In this document: positions 1 to 46,360 of the stretch, piece by piece
How the letters are laid out: each line of letters opens with the position of its first letter
Position numbering within the stretch: position 1 is the stretch's first letter
Assembly: GCF_058153355.1 (NCBI RefSeq)
Contig: NZ_CM177019.1
Reading direction: 5' to 3' (one strand)
Length of the DNA stretch: 64,000 bases
Made by a program: the position numbers and the translations under genes
The notes under the pieces: generated by a model
Databases searched by the model: none
The model's input: only the letters and a program-made list of their open reading frames with translations
Told to the model about the DNA's origin: nothing

Positions 1-358
1 CTTCAGAGTCATTAATCTGGGCGTAATGGTCAGCCAGGACGAATATATTGATGCTGCCATTGAAACTGGCGCTGACGCGATTGTCGTCTCCTCTATCTAT
101 GGGCATGGCGATATCGATTGTCTGGGCATGCGCGAACGCTGCATCGAGCGTGGGCTGGGTAACATCATGCTCTATGTGGGCGGTAACCTGGTGGTCGGAA
201 AACATGACTTCGCTGACGTGGAAACCAAGTTCAAAGAGATGGGATTTGATCGCGTCTTTTCCCCAAGTCATGACTTAGAAGATGTTTGTCAGCTGATGGC
301 CCACGATATCACCCAACGTCATGACGTTGATACTCGCATTCTTGAAGAGGCAATCTGA
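1..358 (+). CDS. Glutamate mutase small (sigma, B12-binding) subunit, 5'-truncated by window edge
   Basis: Frame continues open to position 2 (FRVINLGV upstream of the first Met). Translation resembles clostridial GlmS/MutS B12-binding subunit (AIETGAD..VSS.YG.G.IDC, VGGN.VVGK). Sits first in a glmS-glmL-glmE-mal gene order. Confidence 0.8.
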
Positions 359-1746
359 TGCAAATCGTCTCTGTCGATATTGGATCGACGTGGACCAAAG
401 CAGCCCTCTTCACCCGGGAGGGGGACGCGTTAACGTTGGTTAACCACGTTCTGACCCCAACCACCACCCATCATCTGGCGAAAGGGTTTTTCTCCAGCCT
501 GGACCAGGTGTTAAACGTAGATGATGCCCTCCCCCTGTTAAACAGTGGTGAGGTTGCATTGAAGTATTCCTCCTCTGCCGAAGGTGGGCTGGCGGTTGCC
601 GCAATGGGATTGGTGCCTTCTATCACCCTGGAAACCGCGAAAGTAACCGCTCACTCTGCGGGTGCTAAAATTGCGCAATATTACGCCTACAAGCTGAACC
701 GCCGTGATATCCAGGCACTGGAAGAAACGCAGCCCGATATTCTCTTGTTCACCGGCGGCACCGACGGCGGAGAAGAAAGCTACGGACTGAATAACGCCCG
801 TGTGCTGGCAGAATCCAAACTCGACTGCGCCATTATTTATGCCGGAAACCGGGATATTCAGGATAAGGTGCAGGAGATCCTCGGGCATAAAGACCTGACC
901 ATCGTCGACAACGTTCTGCCCGATCTTGACCATCCGAACCCTTTAGCTGCACGCCAGGCTATCTGCGACATATTCCTTAAACGCATCGTTAAAGGGAAAG
1001 GGCTGGATGTCATTGTTGATAAAACAGGCGAAGAACCAATGCCGACACCATGGACGGTCTTTGAACTGGTTAAGGCAATCAGTAACGTCGATCACAGCTG
1101 GAAAGAGTTCATGCTGATCGACATGGGCGGCGCAACCACCGATGTCTATTCCGCCTGTGCCAACACGCTCTCGCCCGACACTGTTTTACATGGCGTACCG
1201 GAACCCTTCGTAAAACGGACGGTGGAAGGCGATCTGGGAATGCGCGTCTCGGCAATGGTTGTTGGTGAAAGTGCGAAAGAGTTAGTCAGTGTGAATTTTG
1301 CTCAGCAACCCGCACAGTTGGACGCTTTTTATCATTACCTCCGTCATCTAGTCGCTCATCCCGACTACTTACCCGCGAATGCAGATGAAAAATATTTCGA
1401 TACCGTCCTGGCCGGACTGTGTGTGGGTTATGCCACCGAAAGACATGCGGGCACCAAAAAAGAGGTCTGCACCTGCGTCGGCAATGTCGATTTACAGATG
1501 GGACGTGATCTGACAACCGTGCGTAAAGTCGTGGGTTCCGGCGGATGGCTCTCACGTGCCAGTCAGTTCGATATGCATCACTGGTTGAAATACCGCGAGT
1601 TAAACGACGACGGTAAACGCATTCTCTTACCGACCGAATTTGAATATTACCGCGATTACCGGGGGCTATTACCACTGCTGGCAAACGTCGCCAGAGTCGA
1701 TCCGCTGGCCGCCGCGCGCACCAGTATTCAATGCTTAACCCTATAA
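358..1746 (+). CDS. glmL: Glutamate mutase-associated protein L (MutL/GlmL-like, putative reactivase/chaperone)
   Basis: 462-aa ORF lying between the mutase S and E subunit genes, as in clostridial glm/mut operons. Start overlaps the upstream stop (ATGA). Confidence 0.7.
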   Translation: MQIVSVDIGSTWTKAALFTREGDALTLVNHVLTPTTTHHLAKGFFSSLDQVLNVDDALPLLNSGEVALKYSSSAEGGLAVAAMGLVPSITLETAKVTAHSAGAKIAQYYAYKLNRRDIQALEETQPDILLFTGGTDGGEESYGLNNARVLAESKLDCAIIYAGNRDIQDKVQEILGHKDLTIVDNVLPDLDHPNPLAARQAICDIFLKRIVKGKGLDVIVDKTGEEPMPTPWTVFELVKAISNVDHSWKEFMLIDMGGATTDVYSACANTLSPDTVLHGVPEPFVKRTVEGDLGMRVSAMVVGESAKELVSVNFAQQPAQLDAFYHYLRHLVAHPDYLPANADEKYFDTVLAGLCVGYATERHAGTKKEVCTCVGNVDLQMGRDLTTVRKVVGSGGWLSRASQFDMHHWLKYRELNDDGKRILLPTEFEYYRDYRGLLPLLANVARVDPLAAARTSIQCLTL

Positions 1747-1764: not shown

Positions 1765-3210
1765 ATGGAACTTCGAAATAAGAAATTAACCCATGACGAA
1801 TTCATGACCGAGCGGCAACAGGTATTGAAAACCTGGGAAACCGGCAAGGATGTTGAAAACTTTGAAGATGGCGTTAAATACCAACAAACCATTCCTGAGC
1901 ATAAACGCTTCTCTCATGCCCTGCTGAAAGCAGACAAGGAAGGTAAAACCCTTAGCCAACCGCGCGCAGGCGTGGCGCTGATGGACGAACACATCGAACT
2001 ACTGAAAACACTACAAGAAGAGTGCGATCTGCTGCCGAGCACTATCGATGCATATACCCGTCTGAATCGGTACGAAGAAGCGGCTGTAGGGATTAAAAAA
2101 TCCATCGAAGCCAGAACCTCTAAACTGAACGGTTTACCGGTAGTTAACCACGGCGTCGCAGCTTGCCGTCGCCTCACCGAAACTCTGCAAAAACCGCTAC
2201 AGATCCGCCACGGCACGCCAGATGCGCGTCTGCTGGCTGAAATCTCGATGGCCAGCGGCTTTACCAGTTATGAAGGCGGCGGCATTTCCTACAATATTCC
2301 GTATGCCAAGCGCGTAACGCTGGAAAAATCGATCCGCGACTGGCAGTACTGCGACCGTTTAATGGGGATGTATGAAGAACACGGGATCCGCATCAACCGC
2401 GAACCGTTTGGCCCACTAACGGGTACGCTGATCCCGCCGTTTATCTCGCACTCTATCGCGATAATCGAAGGCTTGCTGGCACTGGAACAGGGTGTGAAAT
2501 CTATTACCGTTGGTTATGGACAGGTCGGCAGCCTGACGCAGGATGTCGCGGCGATCCAGTCTCTGCGTGAACTTGCACACGAATACTTTCAGAGCTATGG
2601 CTATACCGACTATGAATTAAGTACCGTATTTCACCAGTGGATGGGCGGCTTTCCGGAGGACGAATCGAAAGCGTTCGCCATTATCTCCTGGGGTGCTGCC
2701 GTCGCGGGGATGTCTGGTGCTACCAAAGTCATCACCAAAAGTCCGCACGAAGCCTGGGGCATCCCGACTGCTGCTGCCAACATTCAGGGGCTAAAAGCCT
2801 CCCGCCAGATGCTCAACATGGTCAACGAGCAGAAATTCCCGCCGTGCCCGGCGGTTGAACTGGAAATTGAACTGATTAAGAGCGAGGTTCGCGCTGTACT
2901 GAACAAAGTGTTCGAACTGGGTAATGGTGATATTGCGCGCGGTACGGTGCTGGCATTTGAAGCGGGCGTACTGGATGTACCGTTTGCCCCAGCCGCCTGC
3001 AACGCAGGCAAAATTCTTCCGGTCCGTGACAACACCGGCGCGATACGCGTACTGGAAGCCGGAGCCGTTCCATTGCCAAAAGATATTCTCGACCTCCACC
3101 ACGATTACGTTGCTGAACGCGCACGCTTTGAAGGACGCCAACCGACATTCCAGATGGTTGTAGATGACATCAATGCTGTATCCCACAGTAAATTAATAGG
3201 AAGACCATAA
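1765..3210 (+). CDS. glmE: Glutamate mutase large (epsilon) subunit / methylaspartate mutase E
   Basis: 481-aa ORF of the expected size and operon position between glmL and methylaspartase. Confidence 0.8.
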   Translation: MELRNKKLTHDEFMTERQQVLKTWETGKDVENFEDGVKYQQTIPEHKRFSHALLKADKEGKTLSQPRAGVALMDEHIELLKTLQEECDLLPSTIDAYTRLNRYEEAAVGIKKSIEARTSKLNGLPVVNHGVAACRRLTETLQKPLQIRHGTPDARLLAEISMASGFTSYEGGGISYNIPYAKRVTLEKSIRDWQYCDRLMGMYEEHGIRINREPFGPLTGTLIPPFISHSIAIIEGLLALEQGVKSITVGYGQVGSLTQDVAAIQSLRELAHEYFQSYGYTDYELSTVFHQWMGGFPEDESKAFAIISWGAAVAGMSGATKVITKSPHEAWGIPTAAANIQGLKASRQMLNMVNEQKFPPCPAVELEIELIKSEVRAVLNKVFELGNGDIARGTVLAFEAGVLDVPFAPAACNAGKILPVRDNTGAIRVLEAGAVPLPKDILDLHHDYVAERARFEGRQPTFQMVVDDINAVSHSKLIGRP

Positions 3211-4451
3211 TGAAAATAAAACAGGCCCTTTTCACCGCTGGCTACTCTTCATTCTATTTCGATGACCAGCAGGCGATAAAAAACGGAGCGGGTCACGACG
3301 GCTTTTTTTATACCGGAGAGCCGGTAACACAGGGGTTTAACGCCGTACGTCAGGCCGGGGAGTGCGTTTCGGTTCAGTTGATTCTGGAAAACGGTGCGGT
3401 CGCCGTAGGCGACTGTGCTGCCGTACAGTATTCCGGGGCAGGCGGTCGCGATCCACTGTTCCTCGCAGAGCACTTTATTCCGTTCCTCAACGACCATATC
3501 AAGCCATTACTGGTAGGCCGCGATGTGGATGCTTTCCTGCCGAATGCCCGTTTCTTCGACAAATTGCGTATTGACGGAAACTTGCTGCATACCGCCGTAC
3601 GTTACGGATTATCACAGGCGCTGCTTGATGCTACCGCGCTGGCAACCGGCCGTCTAAAAACTGAAGTGGTCTGTGATGAATGGCAGTTGCCACGCGTGGC
3701 GGAATCCATTCCATTATTTGGTCAGAGCGGCGACGATCGATATATCGCTGTCGATAAGATGATCCTTAAGGGCATCGACGTGCTACCTCATGCGCTGATT
3801 AATAACGTCGAAGAGAAACTGGGCTTTAAAGGAGAAAAACTGCGCGAATATGTCCGTTGGCTATCCGATCGGATTCTAAGCAAACGCACCAGCGCACGCT
3901 ACCACCCTACCCTGCACATCGATGTATACGGCACTATTGGTCTGATCTTCGATATGGATCCGCTTCGCTGTGCGCAATACATCGCCAGTCTGGAAAAAGA
4001 GGCGCAAGGCCTGCCGCTCTACATTGAGGGGCCGGTCGATGCCGGTAACAAGCCCGATCAAATTCGCCTGCTGACCGCGATTACCAAAGAGCTGACGCGC
4101 CTCGGTTCCGGCGTGAAAATTGTGGCCGATGAATGGTGTAACACCTACCAGGATATTGTTGATTTCACTGATGCCGCCAGTTGCCACATGGTGCAAATCA
4201 AAACCCCGGATCTGGGCAGTATTCACAACATCGTCGATGCAGTTCTTTATTGCAACAGCCACAGCATGGAAGCGTACCAGGGCGGCACCTGCAATGAAAC
4301 CGATGTCAGCGCCCGCACGTGTGTCCACGTCGCCCTTGCCGCTCGCCCTATGCGTATGCTGGTAAAACCGGGGATGGGCTTTGACGAAGGCCTCGATATC
4401 GTCTTCAACGAAATGAATCGTACTATCGCGCTGTTGCAGGCTAAGGATTAA
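3210..4451 (+). CDS. mal: 3-Methylaspartate ammonia-lyase (beta-methylaspartase)
   Basis: 413-aa ORF, same length as clostridial methylaspartase, enolase-superfamily-like. Start overlaps the glmE stop. Confidence 0.8.
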   Translation: MKIKQALFTAGYSSFYFDDQQAIKNGAGHDGFFYTGEPVTQGFNAVRQAGECVSVQLILENGAVAVGDCAAVQYSGAGGRDPLFLAEHFIPFLNDHIKPLLVGRDVDAFLPNARFFDKLRIDGNLLHTAVRYGLSQALLDATALATGRLKTEVVCDEWQLPRVAESIPLFGQSGDDRYIAVDKMILKGIDVLPHALINNVEEKLGFKGEKLREYVRWLSDRILSKRTSARYHPTLHIDVYGTIGLIFDMDPLRCAQYIASLEKEAQGLPLYIEGPVDAGNKPDQIRLLTAITKELTRLGSGVKIVADEWCNTYQDIVDFTDAASCHMVQIKTPDLGSIHNIVDAVLYCNSHSMEAYQGGTCNETDVSARTCVHVALAARPMRMLVKPGMGFDEGLDIVFNEMNRTIALLQAKD

Positions 4452-4454
4452 CAA

Positions 4455-5825
4455 ATGGCTCGTTCTTTTAAAGTCTTATCGCCAACGGCAATCCTCGGGT
4501 ATGGATTCCCGGAAGAGAGCTTCCGCAAAGCGATGGCAGAATCGCCCGATCTGATCGCCGTTGATGCAGGCTCTTCCGATCCTGGCCCCCACTACCTCGG
4601 GGCGGGCAAACCGTTTACCGATCGCGCAGGGGTCAAACGCGATCTACGCTATATGATCACCGCAGGCGTGCAAAATAATATACCGGTGGTGATCGGAACG
4701 GCCGGCGGTTCTGGTGCAGCTCCACACCTGGAGTGGTGCCGAGAAATAATTCATGAGATTGCCCGGGAAGAGCACCTCGCGTTCTCGATGGCGCTGATCC
4801 CGGCAGACGTTGACAAAGCCATCGTCCACCAGGCGCTGGATAACGGCAAAATCACGGCGCTGGATTTTGTCCCGCCGTTAACCCACGACGCGATTGACGA
4901 AAGTACGTATATCGTCGCGCAAATGGGCGTCGAACCCTTCCAGCAGGCGCTGAAAGAAGGCGCGCAAGTGGTGCTGGGCGGGCGCGCTTACGACCCGGCC
5001 TGCTTTGCTGCGCTACCGATCATGCAAGGCTTTGATGAAGGTCTGGCGCTGCATTGTGGGAAAATCCTTGAATGCGCGGCAATCGCCGCAACGCCCGGCT
5101 CAGGCTCTGACTGTGCGATGGGCATCATTGATGACAACGGCTTTACGCTGAAGACATTTAATCCGAAGCGTAAATTTACCGAAACGTCAGCGGCTGCACA
5201 CACACTGTATGAGAAATCCGATCCCTACTTCCTGCCAGGACCTGGCGGCGTGTTGAACCTGAAAGGTTGCACATTTAAAGCGATCAATGATGGCGAAGTT
5301 TACGTCAGCGGTTCTAAGCATGAAGAAACGCCCTATGCCCTGAAACTGGAAGGTGCGCGGCGGGTGGGTTTCCGCTGTTTGACCATCGCCGGAACGCGCG
5401 ACCCGATCATGATCGCCGGGATCGATAACATCATCGATGAAGTCAAAACCAGCGTTTCGCGTAATCTGTCCTTAGACGATGACAGCATTCGCATCAATTT
5501 CCACCTGTACGGCAAAAACGGGGTGATGGGTAACCATGAACCGATGCAAACTGCCGGGCATGAGCTGGGGATTGTCCTTGATGTAGTTGCACCGACCCAG
5601 GAAATTGCCAACAGCGTTTGCTCGCTGGTGCGCTCTACCATGCTGCACTACGGCTATGAAAACCGCATCGCTACCGCAGGCAACCTGGCGTTCCCGTTCT
5701 CCCCTTCTGATATCCAGGGCGGGCCGGTATACGAATTTTCCATATATCACCTGATTGAAGCCAACGACGCTCTGCGTTTTGATTTCCATATTGAACAGGT
5801 GACGCCAGAAGGAGTTCAGGCATGA
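4455..5825 (+). CDS. DUF1446 (AtuA-like) family protein, function unknown
   Basis: 456-aa ORF tightly packed in the operon; family assignment from recollection of AtuA-like sequence features. Confidence 0.6.
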   Translation: MARSFKVLSPTAILGYGFPEESFRKAMAESPDLIAVDAGSSDPGPHYLGAGKPFTDRAGVKRDLRYMITAGVQNNIPVVIGTAGGSGAAPHLEWCREIIHEIAREEHLAFSMALIPADVDKAIVHQALDNGKITALDFVPPLTHDAIDESTYIVAQMGVEPFQQALKEGAQVVLGGRAYDPACFAALPIMQGFDEGLALHCGKILECAAIAATPGSGSDCAMGIIDDNGFTLKTFNPKRKFTETSAAAHTLYEKSDPYFLPGPGGVLNLKGCTFKAINDGEVYVSGSKHEETPYALKLEGARRVGFRCLTIAGTRDPIMIAGIDNIIDEVKTSVSRNLSLDDDSIRINFHLYGKNGVMGNHEPMQTAGHELGIVLDVVAPTQEIANSVCSLVRSTMLHYGYENRIATAGNLAFPFSPSDIQGGPVYEFSIYHLIEANDALRFDFHIEQVTPEGVQA

Positions 5826-6139
5826 AACAGTCAATTGTCTCACTGGCGCAAGTCATTCGTTCGAAAAATGCCGGACCTTACGAACTGGTTTTAGATATTT
5901 TATTTAAAACGAAAGAAAACTATGAGCGAGTAAAATCATCAGGGCAATTAACCCCAGAACTGATTGCGCGCTTATATCATGTTGAACCTGACTTTATTCA
6001 TCGTATTGTCTGGTTTGATCCTTCTAACGCAGTAAAAATTGTCATGCCACGAGATATTATCTCCGGGAATGTAGGTGACAATGATGTCTATGGCGCACAG
6101 CAACATGCACCTTTATTAAATATGAGTTTCGATTTGTAA
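5822..6139 (+). CDS. Small DUF4387-like protein (usual partner of DUF1446 proteins)
   Basis: 105-aa ORF overlapping the upstream stop by 4 nt, indicating translational coupling. Confidence 0.55.
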   Translation: MKQSIVSLAQVIRSKNAGPYELVLDILFKTKENYERVKSSGQLTPELIARLYHVEPDFIHRIVWFDPSNAVKIVMPRDIISGNVGDNDVYGAQQHAPLLNMSFDL

Positions 6140-6299
6140 AAATCCGAACACTTTTAGCCAACTGACATCCCGTCACTTATTGCAGCTCAACACTTCAGCT
6201 ATTTGTAAGGTTGTTATAGCAGGTAGATGCCTGAATCTCTATTCAGGCATCCACTTCTCCTGATTCTGATTTATCGCCGTGCACCTGATGGAGGAAAAA

Positions 6300-7580
6300 A
6301 TGAAGAAAATAAGTTTAACCACGATGATTCTTTTGGCGCTGGTACTTGGAATGATTATCGGCGTAGTGCTCAATAACACTGCTTCACCGGAAACAGCAAA
6401 ACTCTATGCGCAAGAAATATCGATATTCACGACGATTTTCTTACGACTGATAAAAATGATTATCGCTCCGTTAGTGGTCTCTACCCTGGTGGTAGGTATT
6501 GCTAAAATGGGCGATGCCAAAGCCCTTGGTCGTATTTTTTCTAAAACACTCTTTTTATTTATTTGCGCCTCATTGCTGTCAATTGCCTTAGGCTTGATAA
6601 CGGTAAATTTCTTCATGCCAGGCACAGGAATTAATTTTGTTGCACACGGTGCCGAAACCACCGGAGTGGTCGCGTCAGAACCCTTTACACTAAAAGTATT
6701 TATTTCGCATGCTTTCCCCACCAGCATTGTCGATGCCATGGCGCACAATGAAATTTTGCAAATCGTGGTGTTCTCAATTTTCCTCGGCTGTAGCCTGACG
6801 GCGATTGGTGAGAAAGGCAGCGCCATCGTTCACGCCTTAGATTCGCTGGCACATGCCATGTTAAAGCTCACTGGCTACGTCATGCTCTTCGCTCCCCTGA
6901 CCGTATTCGCCGCTATTTCAGCATTGATTGCTGAACGAGGACTGGCAGTTATGGTGAGCGCCGGGATCTTTATGGGTGAATTTTATTTCACCATGTTATT
7001 ACTTTGGGTGCTGCTTATCGGTCTGGCCATCGTTTATGTCGGCCCCTGCATCAGACGCCTGACCCGCGCCCTTTCAGAACCCGCCCTGCTGGCATTTACC
7101 ACATCCAGTTCTGAAGCTGCTTTTCCGGGAACGCTTGAAAAACTGGAGCAATTTGGCGTTTCCCCCAAAATTGCCAGCTTTGTCTTACCCATTGGCTACT
7201 CATTTAATCTCGTTGGATCAATGGCCTACTGCTCCTTCGCCACAGTTTTCATCGCCCAGGCCTGCAATATCCATTTATCCATCGGTGAGCAAATCACCAT
7301 GCTGTTGATCCTGATGTTGACCTCGAAAGGAATGGCTGGCGTACCACGCGCCTCAATGGTGGTTATCGCCGCCACGCTCAACCAGTTCAATATTCCGGAA
7401 GCGGGGCTGATCTTGCTGATGGGCGTTGATCCGTTCCTTGATATGGGGCGTTCCGCGACAAACGTCATGAGCAACGCAATGGGCGCTGCGATGGTGAGTC
7501 GGTGGGAAGGCGAACATTTCGGCGAGGGTTGTCGGGGTAAAGCATTAAAACCCAATGAATCGAACGTTGCTCTGCCCTGA
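6300..7580 (+). CDS. Dicarboxylate/amino acid:cation symporter (DAACS family), likely glutamate/aspartate uptake
   Basis: Multi-pass membrane protein with GltP/GltT-like sequence. Start chosen at the ATG (6300) preceded by a GGAGGA ribosome-binding site. Confidence 0.8.
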   Translation: MKKISLTTMILLALVLGMIIGVVLNNTASPETAKLYAQEISIFTTIFLRLIKMIIAPLVVSTLVVGIAKMGDAKALGRIFSKTLFLFICASLLSIALGLITVNFFMPGTGINFVAHGAETTGVVASEPFTLKVFISHAFPTSIVDAMAHNEILQIVVFSIFLGCSLTAIGEKGSAIVHALDSLAHAMLKLTGYVMLFAPLTVFAAISALIAERGLAVMVSAGIFMGEFYFTMLLLWVLLIGLAIVYVGPCIRRLTRALSEPALLAFTTSSSEAAFPGTLEKLEQFGVSPKIASFVLPIGYSFNLVGSMAYCSFATVFIAQACNIHLSIGEQITMLLILMLTSKGMAGVPRASMVVIAATLNQFNIPEAGLILLMGVDPFLDMGRSATNVMSNAMGAAMVSRWEGEHFGEGCRGKALKPNESNVALP

Positions 7581-7687
7581 GGGAGATCTTAAGCAATCAG
7601 AAGCCAATGACTACGCATTTTTATAAGCCGGATCATGAAGTTAGACGGCAATTAAGTAACACTAACGTTTAAGGTGAAAAGTGAAAT

Positions 7688-9340
7688 ATGTCCAAACCAT
7701 TTATCTGGCAAGAACCGTTTCTACAAAATAAAGACGGTACAGAATATACATTAATTAGCGATCAACATATTACAGTAACGGAATTAGACGGCGAAGAAGT
7801 AATAAAAATCGCTCCTGAAGCATTAACGCTGCTTGCCCGGCAGGCATTTTATGAAGCCTCTTTTTTCTTACGTTCCGCTCATTTGCAACAGGTCGCCAGC
7901 ATTCTTAACGATCCGCAGGCCAGCAGTAATGATAAATACGTTGCGTTGCAGTTATTACGTAATGCTGAAGTCTCAGCAAAAGGGGTATTACCCAACTGTC
8001 AGGATACCGGCACCGCAACTATTGTTGCCAGTAAAGGGCAACAGATATGGACCGGAGGCAACGACGCCGAAGCCTTAAGCAAAGGCATTTACACCACTTT
8101 TCAGGAAAATAATTTGCGCTTTTCACAAAATGCGCCGCTGGATATGTATACCGAAGTCAATACGTACACCAATCTACCGGCGCAGATTGATATCAGCGCC
8201 GTCGCTGGTGATGAGTACCATTTTCTCTGTATTAATAAAGGGGGCGGCTCCGCCAATAAAGCCGCACTTTATCAGGAAACCAAATCCTTATTGCAACCAG
8301 AAAAACTGACCGCATTTTTAATCGAAAAAATGAAATCGCTGGGCACCGCTGCCTGCCCGCCTTACCACATCGCCTTTGTCGTCGGAGGGCTTTCAGCCGA
8401 TCAAACCTTAAAAGTTGCCAAGCTGGCCTCTACGAAATATTACGACAATTTGCCCACCAGCGGAAACGAGCAGGGACAAGCATTCCGTGATATTGAGCTG
8501 GAAAAAGCGTTGCTCGAAGCCAGTCAGCAATTTGGTATTGGTGCGCAATTTGGGGGTAAATATTTCGCTCATGATATTCGCGTCATTCGTCTGCCGCGTC
8601 ACGGTGGCTCCTGCCCGATAGCTATGGCGCTCTCCTGTTCTGCCGATCGCAATATCAAAGCAAAAATTAACAAGCATGGTATCTGGCTGGAAAAACTCGA
8701 ACACAATCCGGGGCAATATATTCCAGCCTCACTGCGGGAAGAAAATCACGCGCAACATGTACAGCTGGATCTAAACCGTCCGTTGCGTGACGTGATGCAG
8801 GATCTCGCCAGATTACCGGTAGGCACCCGCGTGTCGTTAAGTGGTCCCATCGTAGTGGCGCGCGATATCGCCCACGCCAAAATAAAAGCGCGGCTGGATA
8901 GCGGCGAATCGATGCCGGATTATCTGAAGCATCATATTGTCTATTACGCTGGCCCGGCGAAAACACCGGAGAACATGGCCTGCGGTTCACTGGGTCCAAC
9001 CACGGGCGGTCGAATGGACGGTTATGTCGAAACCTTCCAGGCGGCTGGCGGCAGTCTGGTAATGTTATCGAAAGGTAACCGCAGCCAGCAGGTCACCGAT
9101 GCCTGTCACAAACATGGCGGCTTCAATCTGGGAAGTATTGGCGGTGCAGCTGCGTTACTGGCGCAAGAATATGTCAAAAGTCTGCGTTGCCTGGAATACC
9201 CGGAGCTGGGTATGGAAGCGGTGTGGATGATGGAAGTGGAAAATCTGCCCGCATTCATCCTGGTCGATGATAAAGGCAATAATTTCTTTAGTCAGTTTGA
9301 GCAGCAACACCGCTGCGCCAGTTGCCCTGCGGGACATTAA
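7688..9340 (+). CDS. fumD: Class I fumarate hydratase paralog, probable mesaconase (FumD-type)
   Basis: 550-aa ORF closely resembling FumA/FumB (CQDTGTA, GGGSANK, CPPYH, SCSADRN). Genomic context is the methylaspartate pathway. Confidence 0.85.
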
Positions 9341-9349
9341 GGAAAATGA

Positions 9350-9952
9350 ATGGAAGCGCGAATTTCAACTGAACGGCATGTGCAGCGCCAGCAGAAATTG
9401 AAGGAACAGGTCGATACGCGCGTCGCGGCGGCGATAGAGAAAAAAGGGATCTTGATTGTTTTCACCGGCAACGGCAAAGGGAAATCCACTGCCGCGTTTG
9501 GTACTGTGACGCGCGCGGTGGGTCATGGCAAAACGGTGGGGGTTGCGCAGTACATCAAGGGGCAATGGGACAACGGCGAATACAACCTTCTCCAGCCGCT
9601 GGGGGTTGAGTTTCATATTATGGGAACCGGTTTTACCTGGGAGACTCAGAACCGGCAAGCGGATATCGACGCGGCGAAAGAGGTCTGGTCGGAAAGCAAA
9701 CGGATGCTGGCTGACAAGCGTTACGACTTAGTGGTGCTTGATGAGCTGACCTATATGCTGGCTTACCATTATCTGGACACCGAAGAAGTGATCACTTCTC
9801 TGCAAAACCGCCCGGCACAACAAAGTGTCATTGTCACCGGACGCAGTTGCCACAGTCAGATATTAAAAATGGCGGATACGGTCAGCGAAATCCGCCCCGT
9901 CAAACATGCTTTTGATAACGGCATTCAGGCGCAGCCGGGTATCGACTGGTAA
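9350..9952 (+). CDS. Cob(I)alamin adenosyltransferase (BtuR/CobO family)
   Basis: 200-aa ORF with P-loop-like GNGKGKSTAA, characteristic of CobA/BtuR-type ATP:corrinoid adenosyltransferases. Confidence 0.8.
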   Translation: MEARISTERHVQRQQKLKEQVDTRVAAAIEKKGILIVFTGNGKGKSTAAFGTVTRAVGHGKTVGVAQYIKGQWDNGEYNLLQPLGVEFHIMGTGFTWETQNRQADIDAAKEVWSESKRMLADKRYDLVVLDELTYMLAYHYLDTEEVITSLQNRPAQQSVIVTGRSCHSQILKMADTVSEIRPVKHAFDNGIQAQPGIDW

Positions 9953-9955
9953 TAA

Positions 9956-9990
9956 CTGCGCCTGGCATCCCGCCAGGCGCAGGTTTTACA
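9956..9990. terminator. Bidirectional intrinsic terminator between the adenosyltransferase gene and the convergent LysR gene
   Basis: Perfect 10-bp inverted repeat ctgcgcctgg/ccaggcgcag with a 7-nt loop, followed by a T-run. Confidence 0.6.
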
Positions 9991-10891
9991 TCTCCTGCGG
10001 TACGACCGATTTCGCCAGCAACCATTCACGAAATTGCTGCAAGTGCGGCGAGTCAGACTTCTCTTCCTGCCACGTCATAATAAAACGATTACCGGTACGA
10101 ATAGGCACATCACAGGGAATCACCATATCGCCACTATCCAAATCATGTTGAATAGCGAACCGTGGTAACAGCGCCACGCCGAGATTAGAGCGCACGGCGG
10201 CAATCAGCATTGAAAGCAAATCGAAACGTGGTCCGTTATTGACCAGCGGACTGCTAACGCCAGATAAAGCAAACCACTCTTCCCAGCCAGTAATACGGGT
10301 GCTTTGATGCAGAAGTGGTAACTCAGTAAGCAGTTCTGCCACTGAAAGTTTTTGATCGGACATTGCAAGCAAACTGCCGCTGCATACCGGCAAAATCTCC
10401 TCTTCAAAGAGATATTCTACTTCCGCCCAGGGCGCGCAAAAATTTTCGCGCATAATGACAGCATCGTACTCCCGATTAAGAAAATCGCCGTTATTAGCTA
10501 AAGAATGAATATTAACAATAATATCGGGATGTAACTTTGTGAATTCATGTAAATTTGGGATTAACCAGTGGGTACTAAACGTAGGATTAACGGCAAGTTC
10601 AATAACCTGAACCGTAGGCTGCCAGGTCATAATCGTATTGGTATCGCGTTCCAGCTTATTTAATGTTTCTTTTACTATCCCCAGGTAATACTTCCCTGCA
10701 TCATTAAGAAAAATGCGTTTTTTAGAGTGTGAAAATAGCGGAGTATGTAAAAATTCCTCCAGCGCACTTACTTGTCTGAATACAGCACTTTGGGTTAACG
10801 CTAACTCCTCTGCCGCTCTGGTATAGCTTTCATGACGTGCGACGACCTCAAAAGTCACCAGCAGCTCCGTTTTAGGTATTTTTCCTCGCAT
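9986..10891 (-). CDS. LysR-family transcriptional regulator
   Basis: N-terminal helix-turn-helix typical of LysR regulators (TFEVVARHESYTRAAEELALTQSAVFRQV). Start could instead be the upstream ATG at 10921. Confidence 0.85.
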   Translation of the reverse strand: MRGKIPKTELLVTFEVVARHESYTRAAEELALTQSAVFRQVSALEEFLHTPLFSHSKKRIFLNDAGKYYLGIVKETLNKLERDTNTIMTWQPTVQVIELAVNPTFSTHWLIPNLHEFTKLHPDIIVNIHSLANNGDFLNREYDAVIMRENFCAPWAEVEYLFEEEILPVCSGSLLAMSDQKLSVAELLTELPLLHQSTRITGWEEWFALSGVSSPLVNNGPRFDLLSMLIAAVRSNLGVALLPRFAIQHDLDSGDMVIPCDVPIRTGNRFIMTWQEEKSDSPHLQQFREWLLAKSVVPQEM

Positions 10892-11480
10892 AATGCCGTC
10901 CGTGAAAAAATAACAATTCAAAAATTATTTTATAAAAAACAGTAGCACTAATGAATATCATAATTCAAATAAACAAACCAGTCAGCTATATGTCTAACCA
11001 GGAAAATAAAGTGACAATAATCCTAAAACAGGAATTTCACCTCAGTTATCCGCATGCAATACTTTAAAGCTATTATTGCAAGAATATTATTCATATACAT
11101 GAATATACTCTAAATAAGTCAAGTTGCAGGAAGGGAACAAATAATGAATTTCCAGAAGCTTACATAAGTAAGTGACCTGGGTGAGCGAACATCGATGCAG
11201 CACATGCAACTTGAATTATGACAAGTATACAATGATAAATTTATATACCCTATGTTATATATTATCTATGTCCGGTTAGATTGAATGAGTCATAGCCTTA
11301 AAAGACTTCACAAAAGATAATTCCTCTTTAACAATAAGCCAGATTTACCACTTGTAAAACTTGCTATCGCCACATACACTACGCGCGTTTTCTTTCCCTT
11401 TTGCTGGCTGCTGACCGGAAAGACAAAATTACCCTCGCAATACAGGGGGTTGATTAACGTCTATATTTCAGGACAGCGTT
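10892..11480. promoter_or_regulatory. AT-rich divergent intergenic region between the LysR gene and the RtcB-like gene
   Basis: About 590 bp of strongly AT-rich non-coding DNA between divergently oriented genes. Confidence 0.5.
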
Positions 11481-12878
11481 ATGCATCATCTTTCAAGGCT
11501 TGATAAAGCCTTTCTGCGCAAAGGGATCCAACTTTCCCGCGCCAACAATATTGTTTCATTATGTCGTCCATCAGGAGCCAGTGCCCGCGTACTGCTGCCG
11601 GACGAACTGCCGCTGGAAGAAAAAGCAGTAACACAACTGCTTGATTTTGCAGAAGTGAAGCTACCAGACCACCCAGGTTATGTGCGCCAGACGTGCGCGA
11701 CGCCAGATTTTCATCCCGGCAATGGCGTCCCCGTTGGCGCGGTGGTGGCCTCAACGCCGGATTTAGTCATTCCCGCCGCCATCGGCACCGATATTTCTTG
11801 TGGCATGCGGCTGCTGACGACCGGATTAACACTTGAGCAAGCCGAAGCGCATAAAGACGTCATCGCTCAGCGGTTAACGCAAGTGCTACTGCAAAATGAG
11901 CGCGATGTTCCGTTATCCGCACAGGCGTTCACCGCGCTTTTTGATGGCGGACCGGCAGATTGCGTGTCGACCTTGCCATCAGCAGGTCTCTGGACACGCA
12001 CGAATATCCCCCGAATGGTACAAGAGATTGACCGCTGCATTGGGCTTAACGAGCATAACAGTCATTCGCGTTATGCCCCACCCGCCCTGCTGGCAACGGA
12101 CCGCGCATTACTCCGCGATCCTTGTCTTGGTACGCCGGGTTCAGGTAATCATTTTATTGAACTTCAGGTCGTTGATAGCGTGGTTGATCGCCATGTAGCC
12201 TGGCAACAAGGGCTGAAAACAGGCGATATTGTGGTGATGATCCACAGTGGATCGCGAGATGTTGGCTTTTACGTCGGAAGACGCTGGATGGATCGCGCCC
12301 GTGCTGAATGGCCCACCGGACATAAACATCCACAAAGCGGGTTATATGGTCTGGCAGGCGGACTGGCGGAGGAATATCTACAAGCGATAGGAATGGCGGC
12401 GCGTTACGCGTGGTTAAATCGCGTGACAATTGCCGAAATGGTGCGCGTATGTCTTGCCAATCTCTTTCATCAGGACAATTCGCATCTGGTGGTGGATGTG
12501 CCACATAACATCATCCTTCGCGAGCATGAAATGAATATTCATCGCAAAGGCGCAACACCGGCACGAGTGGGCAATCTGGCGTTAATCCCCGGTTCAATGG
12601 GCGATTATTCGTGGCTTGCGGTAGGTTGCGGCAACCCGGAGTGGCTGTGGTCTTGCAGTCACGGAGCAGGACGCAGCCAGCGTCGGCAGGCCATGCGCTC
12701 ACGCGCGACTGAAGAGTCAACGTTGCCGTGGCAATGCGTCACATTGCGCGAAGAACGGCGTATTGAAGAAGCGCCAGCTGCTTATAAAGATATTGGTCCG
12801 GTTATCGAAGCCCAACAAGAGGCCGGATTAATTCATCCAGCGGTTAGATTCCGACCGTGGTTAACGTTTAAAGCATAA
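11481..12878 (+). CDS. RtcB-family RNA ligase-like protein (orphan paralog)
   Basis: 465-aa ORF with RtcB hallmark motifs (DISCGMR, GSGNHFIE, HSGSRDVG, CSHGAGR). No rtcA or rtcR gene adjacent. Confidence 0.75.
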   Translation: MHHLSRLDKAFLRKGIQLSRANNIVSLCRPSGASARVLLPDELPLEEKAVTQLLDFAEVKLPDHPGYVRQTCATPDFHPGNGVPVGAVVASTPDLVIPAAIGTDISCGMRLLTTGLTLEQAEAHKDVIAQRLTQVLLQNERDVPLSAQAFTALFDGGPADCVSTLPSAGLWTRTNIPRMVQEIDRCIGLNEHNSHSRYAPPALLATDRALLRDPCLGTPGSGNHFIELQVVDSVVDRHVAWQQGLKTGDIVVMIHSGSRDVGFYVGRRWMDRARAEWPTGHKHPQSGLYGLAGGLAEEYLQAIGMAARYAWLNRVTIAEMVRVCLANLFHQDNSHLVVDVPHNIILREHEMNIHRKGATPARVGNLALIPGSMGDYSWLAVGCGNPEWLWSCSHGAGRSQRRQAMRSRATEESTLPWQCVTLREERRIEEAPAAYKDIGPVIEAQQEAGLIHPAVRFRPWLTFKA

Positions 12879-12975: not shown

Positions 12976-13845
12976 TTATTTCAGAACAGTTTTCAGTGCT
13001 TCACCGATATCCGCCAGGCTGCGAACGGTTTTCACGCCTGCGGCTTCCAGAGCAGCAAATTTCTCATCCGCAGTCCCTTTCCCACCGGCAATGATGGCAC
13101 CCGCGTGGCCCATACGTTTGCCTTTCGGCGCAGTTACACCAGCGATGTAACCTACAACTGGCTTGGTAACGTGCTCTTTGATGTACGCAGCCGCTTCTTC
13201 TTCAGCGCTACCGCCGATCTCACCGATCATCACGATCGCTTCGGTCTGCGGATCTTTTTCGAACATTTCGAGGATGTCGATAAAGTTAGAGCCTGGGATC
13301 GGGTCGCCGCCGATACCGACACAGGTCGACTGACCGAAACCGTAATCCGTGGTCTGTTTAACCGCTTCATAGGTCAGTGTACCGGAACGGGAAACGATAC
13401 CCACTTTACCCGGTTTGTGAATGTGACCAGGCTGGATGCCGATTTTACATTCACCCGGAGTGATAACGCCTGGGCAGTTCGGGCCGATCATGCGTACGCC
13501 AGCTTCGTCCAGTTTCACTTTCACCGTCAGCATATCCAGCGTCGGGATGCCTTCAGTGATGGTGATAATCAGTTTGATACCTGCGTCGATGGCTTCCAGA
13601 ATGGAGTCTTTGCAGAACGGAGCCGGTACGTAGATAACAGAAGCGGTAGCGCCAGTGGCAGCAACGGCTTCACGCACAGTGTTGAACACCGGCAGACCGA
13701 GGTGGGTAGTACCGCCTTTACCAGGGGTTACGCCGCCAACCATTTTAGTGCCGTATGCAATGGCCTGTTCAGAGTGGAAAGTCCCCTGGCTACCAGTAAA
13801 GCCCTGGCAGATAACCTTGGTGTTTTTATCAATTAAAATGGACAT
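12976..13845 (-). CDS. sucD: Succinyl-CoA synthetase alpha subunit
   Basis: 289-aa ORF matching SucD. Confidence 0.97.
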
Positions 13846-15089: not shown

Positions 15090-15275
15090 GTCACCCGTAG
15101 GCCTGATAAGACGCGCAAGCGTCGCATCAGGCATCGCGTGTCGGATGCGGCGCGAGCGCCTTATCCGACCTACATTGATGGTCCCCGTAGGCCTGATAAG
15201 ACGCGTCAGCGTCGCATCAGGCTTCAATTGCCGGAGAAAGCGATAATGCCTCATCCGGTCTACAGTGCAGGTGAA
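15090..15275. repeat. REP/BIME palindromic elements in the sucB-sucC intergenic region
   Basis: Repeated gcctgataagacgcg...cgtcgcatcaggc and ggatgcggcg palindromic units. Confidence 0.8.
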
Positions 15276-19476: not shown

Positions 19477-19762
19477 ATTTCCTGCATTTCTTTTGTAGGC
19501 CGGATAAGGCGTTCACGCCGCATCCGGCGCTGTTTGCCTGATGCGACGCTTGCGCGTCTTATCAGGCCTACGATTCCTGCATTTCTTTTGTAGGCCGGAT
19601 AACGCATTCACGCCGCATCCGGCACTGGTTGCCTGATGCGACGCTTGCGCGTCTTATCAGGCCTACGATTTCTGCATTTCTTTTGTAGGCCGGATAAGGC
19701 GTTCACGCCGCATCCGGCACTGGTTGCCTGATGCGACGCTTGTGCGTCTTATCAGGCCTGGG
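19477..19762. repeat. Three tandem copies of a ~95-bp REP/BIME unit in the sdhB-sucA intergenic region
   Basis: Unit tctgcatttcttttgtaggccggataaggcgttcacgccgcatccggc...gcctgatgcgacgcttgcgcgtcttatcaggcctac repeated head-to-tail three times with a few substitutions. Confidence 0.85.
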
Positions 19763-39068: not shown

Positions 39069-39153
39069 TACTGCTCCTGAACGGTTTACAGGAGTAAGTG
39101 TAGACGTTGGCAAATGATGTTTGTGAAGTTAATCCTGTTGTAGCAGGGCAAGA

Positions 39154-39977
39154 TTACGAAAGCACGCTCCCCGCAAGGACTGACGCCAGGTAGTTTCTGT
39201 CCATGGCTGCCCTTTCCATTCACACGTGAAATCAATAAGTTCATCAGGGACATCGCAAACAATGTGAAGACGGATTTCTTCTCTGCCGTGACTCTTTTCA
39301 CTAATTGCGTAACTGTCATGCTCTGGATTATTTAATTCTTTCAGTGAGAATTTTTCCTCAAAGGCTTTATTTAGCCGCCCCTGGTTTCCTTTTACAGCGA
39401 ATAAATAATCACCTCCCTGTTTTTGTATCTTCTCTGCAATATCTTTCTGGCAACCCATCGCATCAGTTGTGATGATTTTTCCTTTAATATCCAGCATGTT
39501 AAGAAGTTCAGGGATAGCTGTAATTTCATTTGATTTCTCATCCGTCCTGATCTGTCCGATGACCAGACTGTGCATTGTTGAGAACGCACTAATGACATGA
39601 ATCGCTCCCCTGCAGCGACTCTTGTCATAAGAATGCCGGAGCTTTTTTCCATCAATTGCAATGACGTCTTTATCATCTGAAGAATGGCAGTCACGCATCC
39701 AGTTAATAAAGCACTCGTGAAATTTTGCAGGACTGATACAGGATACAACTCTGGCAATGGTATCGTGAACAGGAATACCATTTTCAAAATCACCCTATTG
39801 CTTCAAAAAATCGAGATGTGTTTCCCCAAAATCCTCTATATCTTCTCAACCTTCTGCACCCGAAATAACGGCGCAAATAGTCAACAGTAGAATATCCGAT
39901 AATTTATGTTCCACTTTCCAGGCTTGTCTGTAATCGGGGATAATAGAAATATGTTCCATCAATTTTTTAAGTACCAT
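39154..39977 (-). pseudogene. H-repeat-associated (ISAs1-family) transposase pseudogene
   Basis: N-terminus [43 protein letters not shown] hits an in-frame TGA. Downstream frames carry [20 protein letters not shown]...[18 protein letters not shown] and the terminal [16 protein letters not shown], requiring a frameshift and an internal deletion after ...EWKG. Confidence 0.85.
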
Positions 39978-40370
39978 TTTGTTCTCCTTAATTATGTAAG
40001 GAGTATTTGATCATGTATAAGCAATAAAAAACAGCTTCAGGTAATGAGGAATATCTCAATTTTTAAACATAAAATGCGAATTGTTTAGTACAAAAAAGCA
40101 GCGTTACGTGATCTTTTCCTGCCATGGGTCTTTACCACAGCAGCTGGGGTTGTTTGGGACCGACTTCCGACAGCAGATCCCGGTGAGCCTGCCACCATCT
40201 CTTCACAAGCTTATGCTTATTACATGCAAAACGTCCCGTTTTGCATCTTTGTGCCTACGGCACACGATGATCTTTCCCTGAGGAGTCATACTTTGTTAGG
40301 ATAAAAAACCTTTAAATAGCTTTCCTACCTTCCAATAAAAACCACAGAATCAGCAATGTTTAAATTTCAA

Positions 40371-41192
40371 TCAGTATTGAGTTTCATTTGTGATCTCTAC
40401 ATTCACTCCTGATGGCTTCTCGCTAAATAAATATCTCATACTCTCATTCTCCATAATCACGGATATATTTAACCCTCCATGAATCCATTGATATGTAATA
40501 TTTTTATCATCAATCTTATAACTAAAATTCCCAATTGGTAACTTTTCCTTCAGATAATTATTCTCCTCATAACTAAGTGCTAGTAATTTATCATAGGCAC
40601 CTTTTAAATCAAAACCCTCAAAATAGCAATGTTCTTTTGATGAACCATCAAATTCTTTTCTGGGATTAGCATCATGACACCAAGTCGACCATTTTTCTTT
40701 TTTTTCCTCAGAAGTATGTTTTTTTTCATTGAAAAACAGCACATAATATTTCTCTGGGATTATTATCTGATCATTAATTTTTAAGATATCTCTATATGGC
40801 CCAGGACATTTATGAACAGAATCCATAATGGATATTTCTTCAGGAAAAAGTTTGCCTTCATGTTTAAATAATTTCCTGTACATACCAACTGTTGTTTGTG
40901 ATAAGTAATATGACAAGGGCTTTTTTTTAACTTCAACATAGTCAGTCGAGCATACGAGACTATTTTCCAATGAATAATCATTTATCGTTAGCTTTCGCCC
41001 ATCCATATTTATCACTACCTTACTGTATGTTTCATCAAGGGCACTTATTATAAGCGAATCATGTTTACCAAAAACATCGATATCTGAAACATTATGATAA
41101 ATCCATACGGTATTTTTAGTATTATCATTAGAATATGCGATACCATGAATAAAAAAAATCATTAGAAAGCCCATAAAAAATTTACCGCGCAT
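40371..41192 (-). CDS. Putative periplasmic immunity protein for the adjacent T6SS cell-wall-lytic effector
   Basis: 273-aa ORF with Sec-type signal peptide (MRGKFFMGFLMIFFIHGIAYS), Lys/Asn-rich, AT-rich codon usage, 19 bp downstream of the effector gene. No recognisable homology, so function is inferred from position. Confidence 0.6.
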   Translation of the reverse strand: MRGKFFMGFLMIFFIHGIAYSNDNTKNTVWIYHNVSDIDVFGKHDSLIISALDETYSKVVINMDGRKLTINDYSLENSLVCSTDYVEVKKKPLSYYLSQTTVGMYRKLFKHEGKLFPEEISIMDSVHKCPGPYRDILKINDQIIIPEKYYVLFFNEKKHTSEEKKEKWSTWCHDANPRKEFDGSSKEHCYFEGFDLKGAYDKLLALSYEENNYLKEKLPIGNFSYKIDDKNITYQWIHGGLNISVIMENESMRYLFSEKPSGVNVEITNETQY

Positions 41193-46185: not shown

Positions 46186-46360
46186 ATAAACCCCATAGCT
46201 ACCGCACTCATGGTGCAAACCATACGGGCTTATAAGAAAGGCTTAAGTGAGATATCTGCCAGATAGCAACTATTAGGAAAATATTTATATATATTTCATG
46301 AATATATATTTCGGTTGGTATAACGGTGTCTAAATATTCCTCTGAACATCTTCCTGATAC

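Follow-up and report, generated by a model that had tools for sequence, protein, structure and literature searches.

A second, diverged corrinoid adenosyltransferase gene in the glutamate mutase cluster of Escherichia coli

Glutamate mutase requires B12, and E. coli is a corrinoid auxotroph. A glutamate mutase gene cluster of this species that carries an adenosyltransferase gene of its own, cobO, raises the question of what that gene reveals about the cofactor supply of its host. An earlier note on this DNA had proposed that an own adenosyltransferase implies dependence on salvaged B12 and that the island is a niche-specific metabolic module. We analyzed the locus within the window, a stretch of 64,000 nucleotides from contig NZ_CM177019.1 (assembly GCF_058153355.1). 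Nucleotide identity places the host of the island in E. coli sensu stricto: the island DNA is about 98% identical to E. coli-like contigs and 87-89% identical to Escherichia whittamii and a cryptic Escherichia, and the best complete E. coli genome reaches at most 98.8% over the island and at most 96.5% over 36-56 kb. The window shares ~98.4% identity overall with NZ_AP027764.1, and the two cobO copies are 100% identical.

Both cobO and its cluster are already known, having been published and being routinely annotated. PGAP gives the name cobO to the identical sequence in NZ_AP027764.1 and uses the same name in every E. coli genome listed. The glutamate-fermentation cluster of E. coli O157:H7 and other Enterobacteriaceae was described by Kronen and Berg in PLoS One in 2015 (PMC4682846), and the legend of their Fig 5 names "CobA, cob(I)alamin adenosyltransferase". 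The same study characterized the FumD of O157:H7 as a mesaconase and regarded MutL/GlmL as a reactivating chaperone. On glutamate under anaerobic conditions, with or without hydroxo-, cyano-, or adenosylcobalamin, neither growth nor methylaspartase activity was obtained (PMC4682846), so that the growth check with cyanocobalamin suggested in the earlier note had largely been done. Citramalate lyase, which completes the classical clostridial pathway, was likewise not detected as an activity by these authors (PMC4682846) and is also not annotated in an island-bearing comparison genome over the region equivalent to the window.

The adenosyltransferase gene and its surroundings

The product of cobO, which runs from an ATG start to a TAA stop codon, matches the whole Pfam domain PF02572 (CobA_CobO_BtuR; E=5.4e-64, 216 bits with a cutoff of 25.7), the NCBIfam equivalog TIGR00708 (cobA; 245 bits, cutoff 168), and the NCBIfam subfamily NF004637 (295 bits, cutoff 185). 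The N-terminal corrinoid-capping segment, PF12557 (Co_AT_N), scores 20.6 bits with a cutoff of 21.4, and residues 6-30 align ungapped with residues 2-26 of the CobA from Salmonella enterica (SeCobA; PDB 1G5R, 1G5T, 1G64, and 4HUT). The alignment with SeCobA is gapless from end to end, with an E value of 2e-87 and 68% identity, and the identity to BtuR of E. coli K-12 (EcBtuR) is 67%. The matches above the curated cutoffs and the alignment with SeCobA confirm the family assignment, and cobO is predicted to encode a genuine, intact ATP:co(I)rrinoid adenosyltransferase (ACAT) of the CobA/CobO/BtuR type, as the earlier note had read it. The catalogue of matches for cobO and its neighbors (Table 1) lies far beyond chance. 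An open reading frame antisense to cobO (9365-9658, 97 aa, TTG start) was regarded as spurious.

The residues known from SeCobA can be placed on the cobO product. Its P-loop, G40NGKGKST47, corresponds to G36-N-G-K-G-K-T-T43 of SeCobA, the acidic pair D131/E132 to Asp127/Glu128, and F95/W97, within GFTWETQN, to F91/W93. Moore and colleagues are said to have found in 2012 (Biochemistry) that Phe91 and Trp93 of SeCobA generate four-coordinate cob(II)alamin. Across 131 island-type sequences, the P-loop and the equivalents of Phe91/Trp93, Asp127/Glu128, Arg161, His164, Lys181, and His182 are invariant.

Table 1. Features of the glutamate mutase locus and its flank, with positions in the window
Feature	Coordinates	Strand	Evidence and remarks
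glmS, methylaspartate/glutamate mutase S, B12-binding subunit	26..358	+	NF002612 173 bits, TIGR01501 168 bits; 5' end cut off by the window start
Full-length glmS in the island-bearing comparison genome	4560-5009 of that locus		As annotated
glmL/mutL, mutase accessory protein, putative reactivating chaperone	358..1746	+	PF13941 MutL E=2e-138; NF040745 accessory_GlmL 506 bits, cutoff 475
glmE, mutase E, catalytic subunit	1765..3210	+	PF06368 E=1e-214; TIGR01503 864 bits
mal, methylaspartate ammonia-lyase	3210..4451	+	PF07476, PF05034; TIGR01502 544 bits
AtuA-family (DUF1446) protein	4455..5825	+	PF07287 E=5e-20; 3' of mal in many distant loci
DUF4387 protein	5822..6139	+	PF14330 E=3e-39; 4-nt overlap with the AtuA-family gene
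GltP/DctA-like dicarboxylate/amino acid:cation symporter	6279..7580	+	PF00375 E=2e-102; under the GltP and DctA equivalog cutoffs; also annotated in the comparison genome; PGAP start ~6300
fumD, class I fumarase/mesaconase	7688..9340	+	NF011921 1276 bits, cutoff 1060
fumD-cobO spacer, 9 nt	9341..9349	+	AAGGA ribosome-binding site overlapping the fumD stop codon
cobO, CobA/BtuR-type ATP:co(I)rrinoid adenosyltransferase (predicted), 200 aa	9350..9952	+	PF02572, TIGR00708, NF004637
Terminator-like hairpin, 11 bp stem, 9 G-C pairs, then GTTTT	9956..9982	.	Separates cobO from the LysR gene, which converges on it
LysR-type transcriptional regulator, convergent with cobO	9986..10921	-	PF00126, PF03466; PGAP version shorter, ends near 10891
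RtcB-family protein	11481..12878	+	PF01139 E=9e-95; under the NCBIfam equivalog cutoffs; occupies what remains of the variable slot ahead of sucD
sucD, core-genome flank of the variable slot	12976..13845	-	

The arrangement looks like one long operon, glmS-glmL-glmE-mal-AtuA-DUF4387-symporter-fumD-cobO, that would be transcribed as a unit with cobO as its last gene. This interpretation is based on the common strand, the 9-nt gap before cobO, the hairpin behind it, and a scan of the plus strand from 5.7 to 9.35 kb, in which no sigma-70-like site was picked up. The hairpin starts 4 nt after the cobO stop codon, and its RNA folds with −28.1 kcal/mol (z = −6.7). Translation of cobO is probably coupled to that of the upstream gene. 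With glmS, glmL, and glmE upstream on the same strand, the connection of the adenosyltransferase with the adenosylcobalamin (AdoCbl)-dependent glutamate mutase, which the earlier note had drawn, holds.

The cluster is presumably controlled by the LysR-type regulator, whose gene adjoins it in nearly all Enterobacteriaceae loci surveyed. Control by a B12 riboswitch was rejected on the basis of Rfam scans, which returned no cobalamin riboswitch at the gathering score in the window and in the locus of the comparison genome, and none at E≤1 upstream of glmS and in 5.8-11.6 kb. This agrees with the study of EDL933 in which the btuB riboswitch was the only one found (PMC4728536). As to expression, glmS (Z0895) is the only one of the searched tags among the matches listed for the bovine-content RNA-seq of EDL933, with a mean of ~4.6 counts. 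The tags Z0886-Z0891, which may include cobO, are absent among these matches.

Corrin salvage and the distribution of cobO

E. coli does not synthesize the corrin ring and salvages cobinamide and later intermediates (PMC2982820, PMC6249242, PMC6461909). The same picture was obtained from two genomes that have cobUST and no cbi genes. In the island-bearing comparison genome, nothing but the remnant of a pduV pseudogene and one small hypothetical ORF comes before cobU-cobS-cobT; in the pdu-positive LF82, the order is pocR, a cobalamin riboswitch, a small remnant ORF, and cobUST, and the cbi genes are gone. LF82 had been a candidate for an E. coli strain with cbi genes on account of the "CbiG" of an older annotation, but it proved to have the pdu operon and, from the riboswitch to cobU, no more than the small remnant ORF. 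Within the window, no cob or cbi gene is annotated in the matching stretch of the comparison genome, and the four largest ORFs at 39.1-46.4 kb, a strain-specific segment, include no such gene. Both premises of the earlier note, a window devoid of corrin synthesis genes and a species that does not make corrin de novo, are thus borne out, and the view that an E. coli host must import corrinoid for the mutase is well supported for E. coli in general. This dependence on B12, however, follows from the mutase and the missing cbi genes of the host and not from cobO.

It was proposed on these premises that the adenosyltransferase is present because the host must salvage B12, and that it marks the island as a gut-specific, salvage-dependent module. 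The AdoCbl requirement of the mutase and the salvaging habit of E. coli are in favor of this explanation, as is the response of EHEC to external B12 (PMC4728536). However, the core genome already permits salvage: of the 5426 complete E. coli genomes, 5422 have the housekeeping btuR and at least 5400 have cobUST. Because both are nearly universal, the island copy is a second ACAT rather than an enabler of salvage, and the step from an own adenosyltransferase to salvage dependence cannot be upheld. In the same set, the island itself is present at ≥80% coverage in 1117 genomes (~21%), close to the share of 26.5% reported previously (PMC4682846), and cobO in 1121, which means that within E. coli the gene is kept in essentially all genomes with the island. 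The island copy follows fumD and the housekeeping btuR follows yciK; cobO is a second, diverged ACAT paralogue of btuR in this species. EDL933 also carries EutT (Z3715), which brings strains of this type to three ACATs: BtuR, EutT, and the island CobO. The salvage explanation is further weakened by the need for adenosylation in de novo synthesis as well (PMC7242693), and by the lack of a B12 riboswitch both within the cluster and upstream of it.

Further objections come from other genera. We surveyed one genome of each species found to have a methylaspartase protein and searched it by tblastn with all island proteins. The common order is glmS-L-E-mal-AtuA-DUF4387-gltP-(glutaminase)-fumD-cobO with a convergent LysR gene, and it was found in Citrobacter, Klebsiella, Salmonella subsp. 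arizonae/diarizonae, Enterobacter, Lelliottia, Buttiauxella, Pluralibacter, and Raoultella; the tight spacing between fumD and cobO recurs in other genera. According to what Lawrence and Roth reportedly found in 1996, several genera with this order synthesize B12, so the identical fumD-cobO pair in genera such as Citrobacter, Klebsiella, Salmonella, and Enterobacter argues against reading salvage from cobO. The RtcB-family gene of the variable slot had no tblastn match in the loci of other genera (L008-L087).

Other loci depart from the common order. In Yersinia and Yokenella, the fumD-cobO pair is kept in another place and orientation; in Yersinia it lies on the opposite side of the cluster, and the genes for SUMT and a GHMP kinase are directly 5' of glmS. 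Morganella has genes for SUMT, CobD, a GHMP kinase, and a CysG-N-like protein 5' of glmS, with no fumD or cobO within 10 kb of the cluster. In those loci of Morganella and Yersinia where cobO is missing or displaced, the scanned ORFs included no ACAT of another type. The linkage of B12-provision genes (SUMT, CobD, CysG-N-like) with glm genes counts against a salvage module and fits a pattern in which cofactor-supply genes ride with the mutase. In Escherichia whittamii, Escherichia sp. E1V33, Pseudescherichia vulneris, ESNIH1, and UBA7338, the cluster is without cobO, and fumD is followed directly by the LysR gene. In this sample, the ACAT is neither necessary for the cluster nor correlated with an inability to make B12. 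The presence of cobO thus says nothing about salvage versus synthesis, and we consider it unlikely that the gene is there because its host salvages.

Origin of the paralogue and its possible roles

The term island, which the earlier note used for the cluster, is apt in one respect, in that the genes are accessory in E. coli, and needs qualification in another. The slot between cydA and sucD in which the cluster lies is common to Escherichia spp., Citrobacter, Klebsiella, Salmonella, and Pseudescherichia. K-12 holds mngR-mngA-mngB in this slot, and some Citrobacter have both sets. The GC content of the cluster is host-like, at 50-57% in most genes and lower in the symporter and LysR genes. A recent foreign import was rejected on the basis of this composition and the shared slot. 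Together with the saturated dS between genera, they suggest that the locus is old in enterobacteria and has been retained in a patchy manner.

In NJ trees, which were built without bootstrap support, the island-type CobO proteins form a clade of their own, with 80-87% identity inside it and 64-70% to BtuR/CobA. This clade is sister to the housekeeping BtuR/CobA together with the fumD-linked copies of Yersinia, and the copies of Yokenella and ENT03 branch deeper, again without bootstrap values. The separate clade and the absence of the yciK context place cobO outside the housekeeping btuR/cobA orthologue group. All enterobacterial copies fall into one group relative to cluster representatives (at 50% identity) from elsewhere, the nearest of which show 40-57% identity. 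On these trees, cobO is an intra-Enterobacterales paralogue. Comparison of cobO with its orthologues in other genera gave dN/dS values of 0.03-0.08 with dS saturated, which indicates strong purifying selection on the gene.

We suggest that cobO probably encodes a functional ACAT, diverged from btuR and placed last in its operon, that is dedicated to the supply and regeneration of AdoCbl for the mutase. According to this proposal, induction of the operon would raise the local capacity for adenosylation through CobO. The enzyme would bind cob(II)alamin in a four-coordinate state by means of Phe95 and Trp97; a one-electron reduction would give cob(I)alamin, to which the 5'-deoxyadenosyl group would then be moved from ATP. 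The substrates would be imported vitamin forms as well as the cob(II)alamin or hydroxocobalamin that is freed when GlmL clears inactivated mutase. The corrin itself would be imported in E. coli and endogenous in producers. The proposal draws on the family matches, the invariant residues, the low dN/dS values, the gene order with glmL in the same cluster, the retention of cobO with the island in E. coli, and the upkeep of the fumD-cobO pair across genera; co-expression, recycling, and cooperation with GlmL are inferred.

Several observations run counter to a dedicated supply. The cluster was not inducible in the hands of Kronen and Berg (PMC4682846), and the function of GlmL as a reactivase is itself deduced. 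There is no dedicated corrin reductase in the cluster, unlike in pdu. Since nearly every E. coli has BtuR and the cluster persists in several species that lack cobO, the gene is not essential for the pathway.

Alternatively, cobO could be a redundant, active paralogue that hitch-hikes with fumD and has no role beyond the reach of BtuR. CobO and BtuR are 67% identical and agree in their catalytic residues, some natural clusters do without cobO, and no phenotype has been reported, which is consistent with this. We nevertheless regard such redundancy as quite improbable, since the dN/dS values stayed low across genera between which dS is saturated, cobO has been kept in essentially all island-bearing E. 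coli, and the adjacency of fumD and an ACAT gene is held in three divergent CobA lineages.

A last group of explanations assumes that the island enzyme has become specialized. CobA-type enzymes are already broad in their corrinoid substrates. The position of SeCobA Arg165 is occupied by Arg in EcBtuR, SeCobA, and the Yersinia copies and in 0 of the 131 island-type sequences, which have Ala (60), Ser (48), Thr (18), or Asn (2) there; the residue of the present protein is Ser169. Arg9 of SeCobA is retained as R13. Buan and Escalante-Semerena are said to have reported in 2005 (J Biol Chem 280:40948) that Arg9 and Arg165 of SeCobA mediate the docking of the flavodoxin FldA. If Arg165 does have this role, a reductant other than flavodoxin may serve the island enzyme, which is a lead and not a result. 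It is very doubtful that CobO is a specialized ACAT that has an electron donor other than FldA, passes AdoCbl directly to GlmS, or prefers the cobamide analogues of the gut: the separate clade and the replaced Arg165 would be in line with it, but Arg9 is kept, the breadth of CobA-type enzymes argues against a new substrate preference, and the 131 sequences are so closely related that one ancestral change suffices. By the same token, we give little credence to a recycling ACAT devoid of the FldA-docking Arg that works with another donor or in a complex with GlmL/GlmS as the CobA-fold counterpart of PduO and EutT.

Comparison with known systems

The cluster corresponds closely to that of Kronen and Berg. 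Both contain glmS, mutL, glmE, mal, DUF1446, gltP, fumD, cobA, and the gene of a LysR regulator, and at the DNA level the O157:H7 copies show 98.8% identity. Nothing essential differs, although the paralogy with btuR and the variants without cobO are not discussed in that paper. The gain over it is modest and consists of a second, diverged ACAT in E. coli that travels with fumD across genera.

The name cobO, given by PGAP, recalls the ACAT of the aerobic pathway in Pseudomonas denitrificans, which belongs to the same Pfam family and catalyzes the same reaction (PMC7242693). However, that CobO acts on cobyrinic acid a,c-diamide in de novo synthesis, a pathway that the E. coli host does not have. 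SeCobA and EcBtuR are closer relatives, sharing the PF02572/TIGR00708 fold family, 67-68% identity, and the catalytic residues with the island protein. The latter differs from them by its separate clade, its position behind fumD, four extra N-terminal residues, and two substitutions, one of Thr42 by Ser in all island copies and the other at the Arg165 position, which is never Arg.

Three families of ACATs are known (PMC7242693). PduO and EutT, the enzymes of the pdu and eut operons, regenerate AdoCbl for operon-encoded enzymes and can replace CobA (PMC7242693; PMC2982820). The cobO product belongs to an unrelated family, with PF02572 and PF12557 as its only matches, and the glm cluster contains neither microcompartment genes nor a PduS-like corrin reductase. 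What cobO appears to share with PduO and EutT, judged by gene order, is a place within the operon of an AdoCbl-dependent enzyme alongside the gene of a reactivating factor, here glmL. If the inducer of the operon is found, the ACAT and GlmL would provide handles on cofactor recycling in an AdoCbl-dependent pathway outside a microcompartment.

Variation in the gene content of the glm cluster

An AtuA-family (DUF1446) gene and a DUF4387 gene are located immediately 3' of mal in the window. The tblastn search of related loci also found mal followed by this gene pair in Alphaproteobacteria, Betaproteobacteria, Acidobacteria, Aminicenantes, and Firmicutes (loci L062, L063, L068, L069, L072, L075, L076, L078, L083, L085, and L086). 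The step beyond mesaconate/citramalate was not found by Kronen & Berg (PMC4682846), and we suggest the AtuA-family/DUF4387 pair as a candidate for this missing step. The same search revealed clusters that lack cobO, in which fumD adjoins the LysR gene, in Escherichia whittamii, Escherichia sp. E1V33, Pseudescherichia vulneris, ESNIH1, and UBA7338 (L070, L010, L043, L061, and L064); the symporter gene is also missing from both Escherichia variants. In Klebsiella, Citrobacter, and others, a glutaminase gene (PF04960) lies between the symporter gene and fumD, whereas the E. coli cluster has only a 107-nt gap in this interval.

Genomic setting and mosaic relationship

In K-12, the slot between cydA and sucD is occupied by mngR-mngA-mngB in place of the glm cluster, and mngB and the glm cluster adjoin each other in Citrobacter sedlakii and one C. 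amalonaticus (L015, L041). In the window, the slot also carries an RtcB-family gene between the LysR gene and sucD; none of the 80 related loci searched yielded a counterpart. Four copies of the REP-like naRNA4 element (RF02564) were detected in the window with Rfam; a tandem array of three separates sucA from sdhB.

The relationship of the whole window (1-64000) to known genomes is mosaic. Compared with NZ_AP027764.1, the island-bearing genome used as a proxy, cobO is 100% identical and the island around it 98.3%; the best complete E. coli genome reaches an identity of at most 98.8% over the island and at most 96.5% over 36-56 kb. The segment 39100-46400 is strain specific, having no equivalent in the proxy genome, and its genes, taken together, resemble an orphan type VI secretion spike-effector islet.

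Features of the window and of related loci
Feature	Location	Strand	Remark
AtuA-family + DUF4387 genes	window 4455-6139		
Symporter-fumD gap	window 7581-7687		
Ser169 codon of cobO	window 9854-9856	+	
RtcB-family protein	window 11481-12878		465 aa; PF01139; under NCBIfam equivalog cutoffs
naRNA4	window 15100-15170	-	
naRNA4	window 19498-19758	+	
DDE transposase	window 39129-39698	-	truncated
Group II intron D1-D4	window 40079-40196	-	Rfam match
ORF	window 40371-41192	-	272 aa; without family match
M23 peptidase + phage-lysozyme protein	window 41212-43977	-	920 aa
VgrG	window 43987-46218	-	
mngR-mngA-mngB, K-12	L005 5154-10612		
Glutaminase	L018 14482-15483		
SUMT, GHMP kinase, Yersinia frederiksenii	L047 4487-6172		
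SUMT, CobD, GHMP kinase, CysG-N-terminal-like protein, Morganella morganii	L054 1454-6044		
pocR, cobalamin riboswitch, cobUST, LF82	L088 33300-35300		

Corrinoid genes and the island adenosyltransferase

B12-synthesis genes lie immediately upstream of glmS in Morganella morganii and Yersinia frederiksenii. The M. morganii CobD is a threonine-phosphate decarboxylase, and the GHMP kinase of this species is PduX-like with scores under the cutoffs. The pdu-positive E. coli LF82 retains pocR, the cobalamin riboswitch, and cobUST, and holds just a 438-nt remnant ORF at the place of cbiA-P; even E. coli with pdu looks cbi-deleted.

In 131 island-type CobO proteins, the position equivalent to Arg165 of the crystallised Salmonella enterica CobA (SeCobA) is never Arg (Ala in 60, Ser in 48, Thr in 18, and Asn in 2), and the cobO product of the window has Ser169 there. 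The island-type CobO proteins differ in this respect from the housekeeping BtuR, SeCobA, and the fumD-linked copies of Yersinia, all of which carry Arg.
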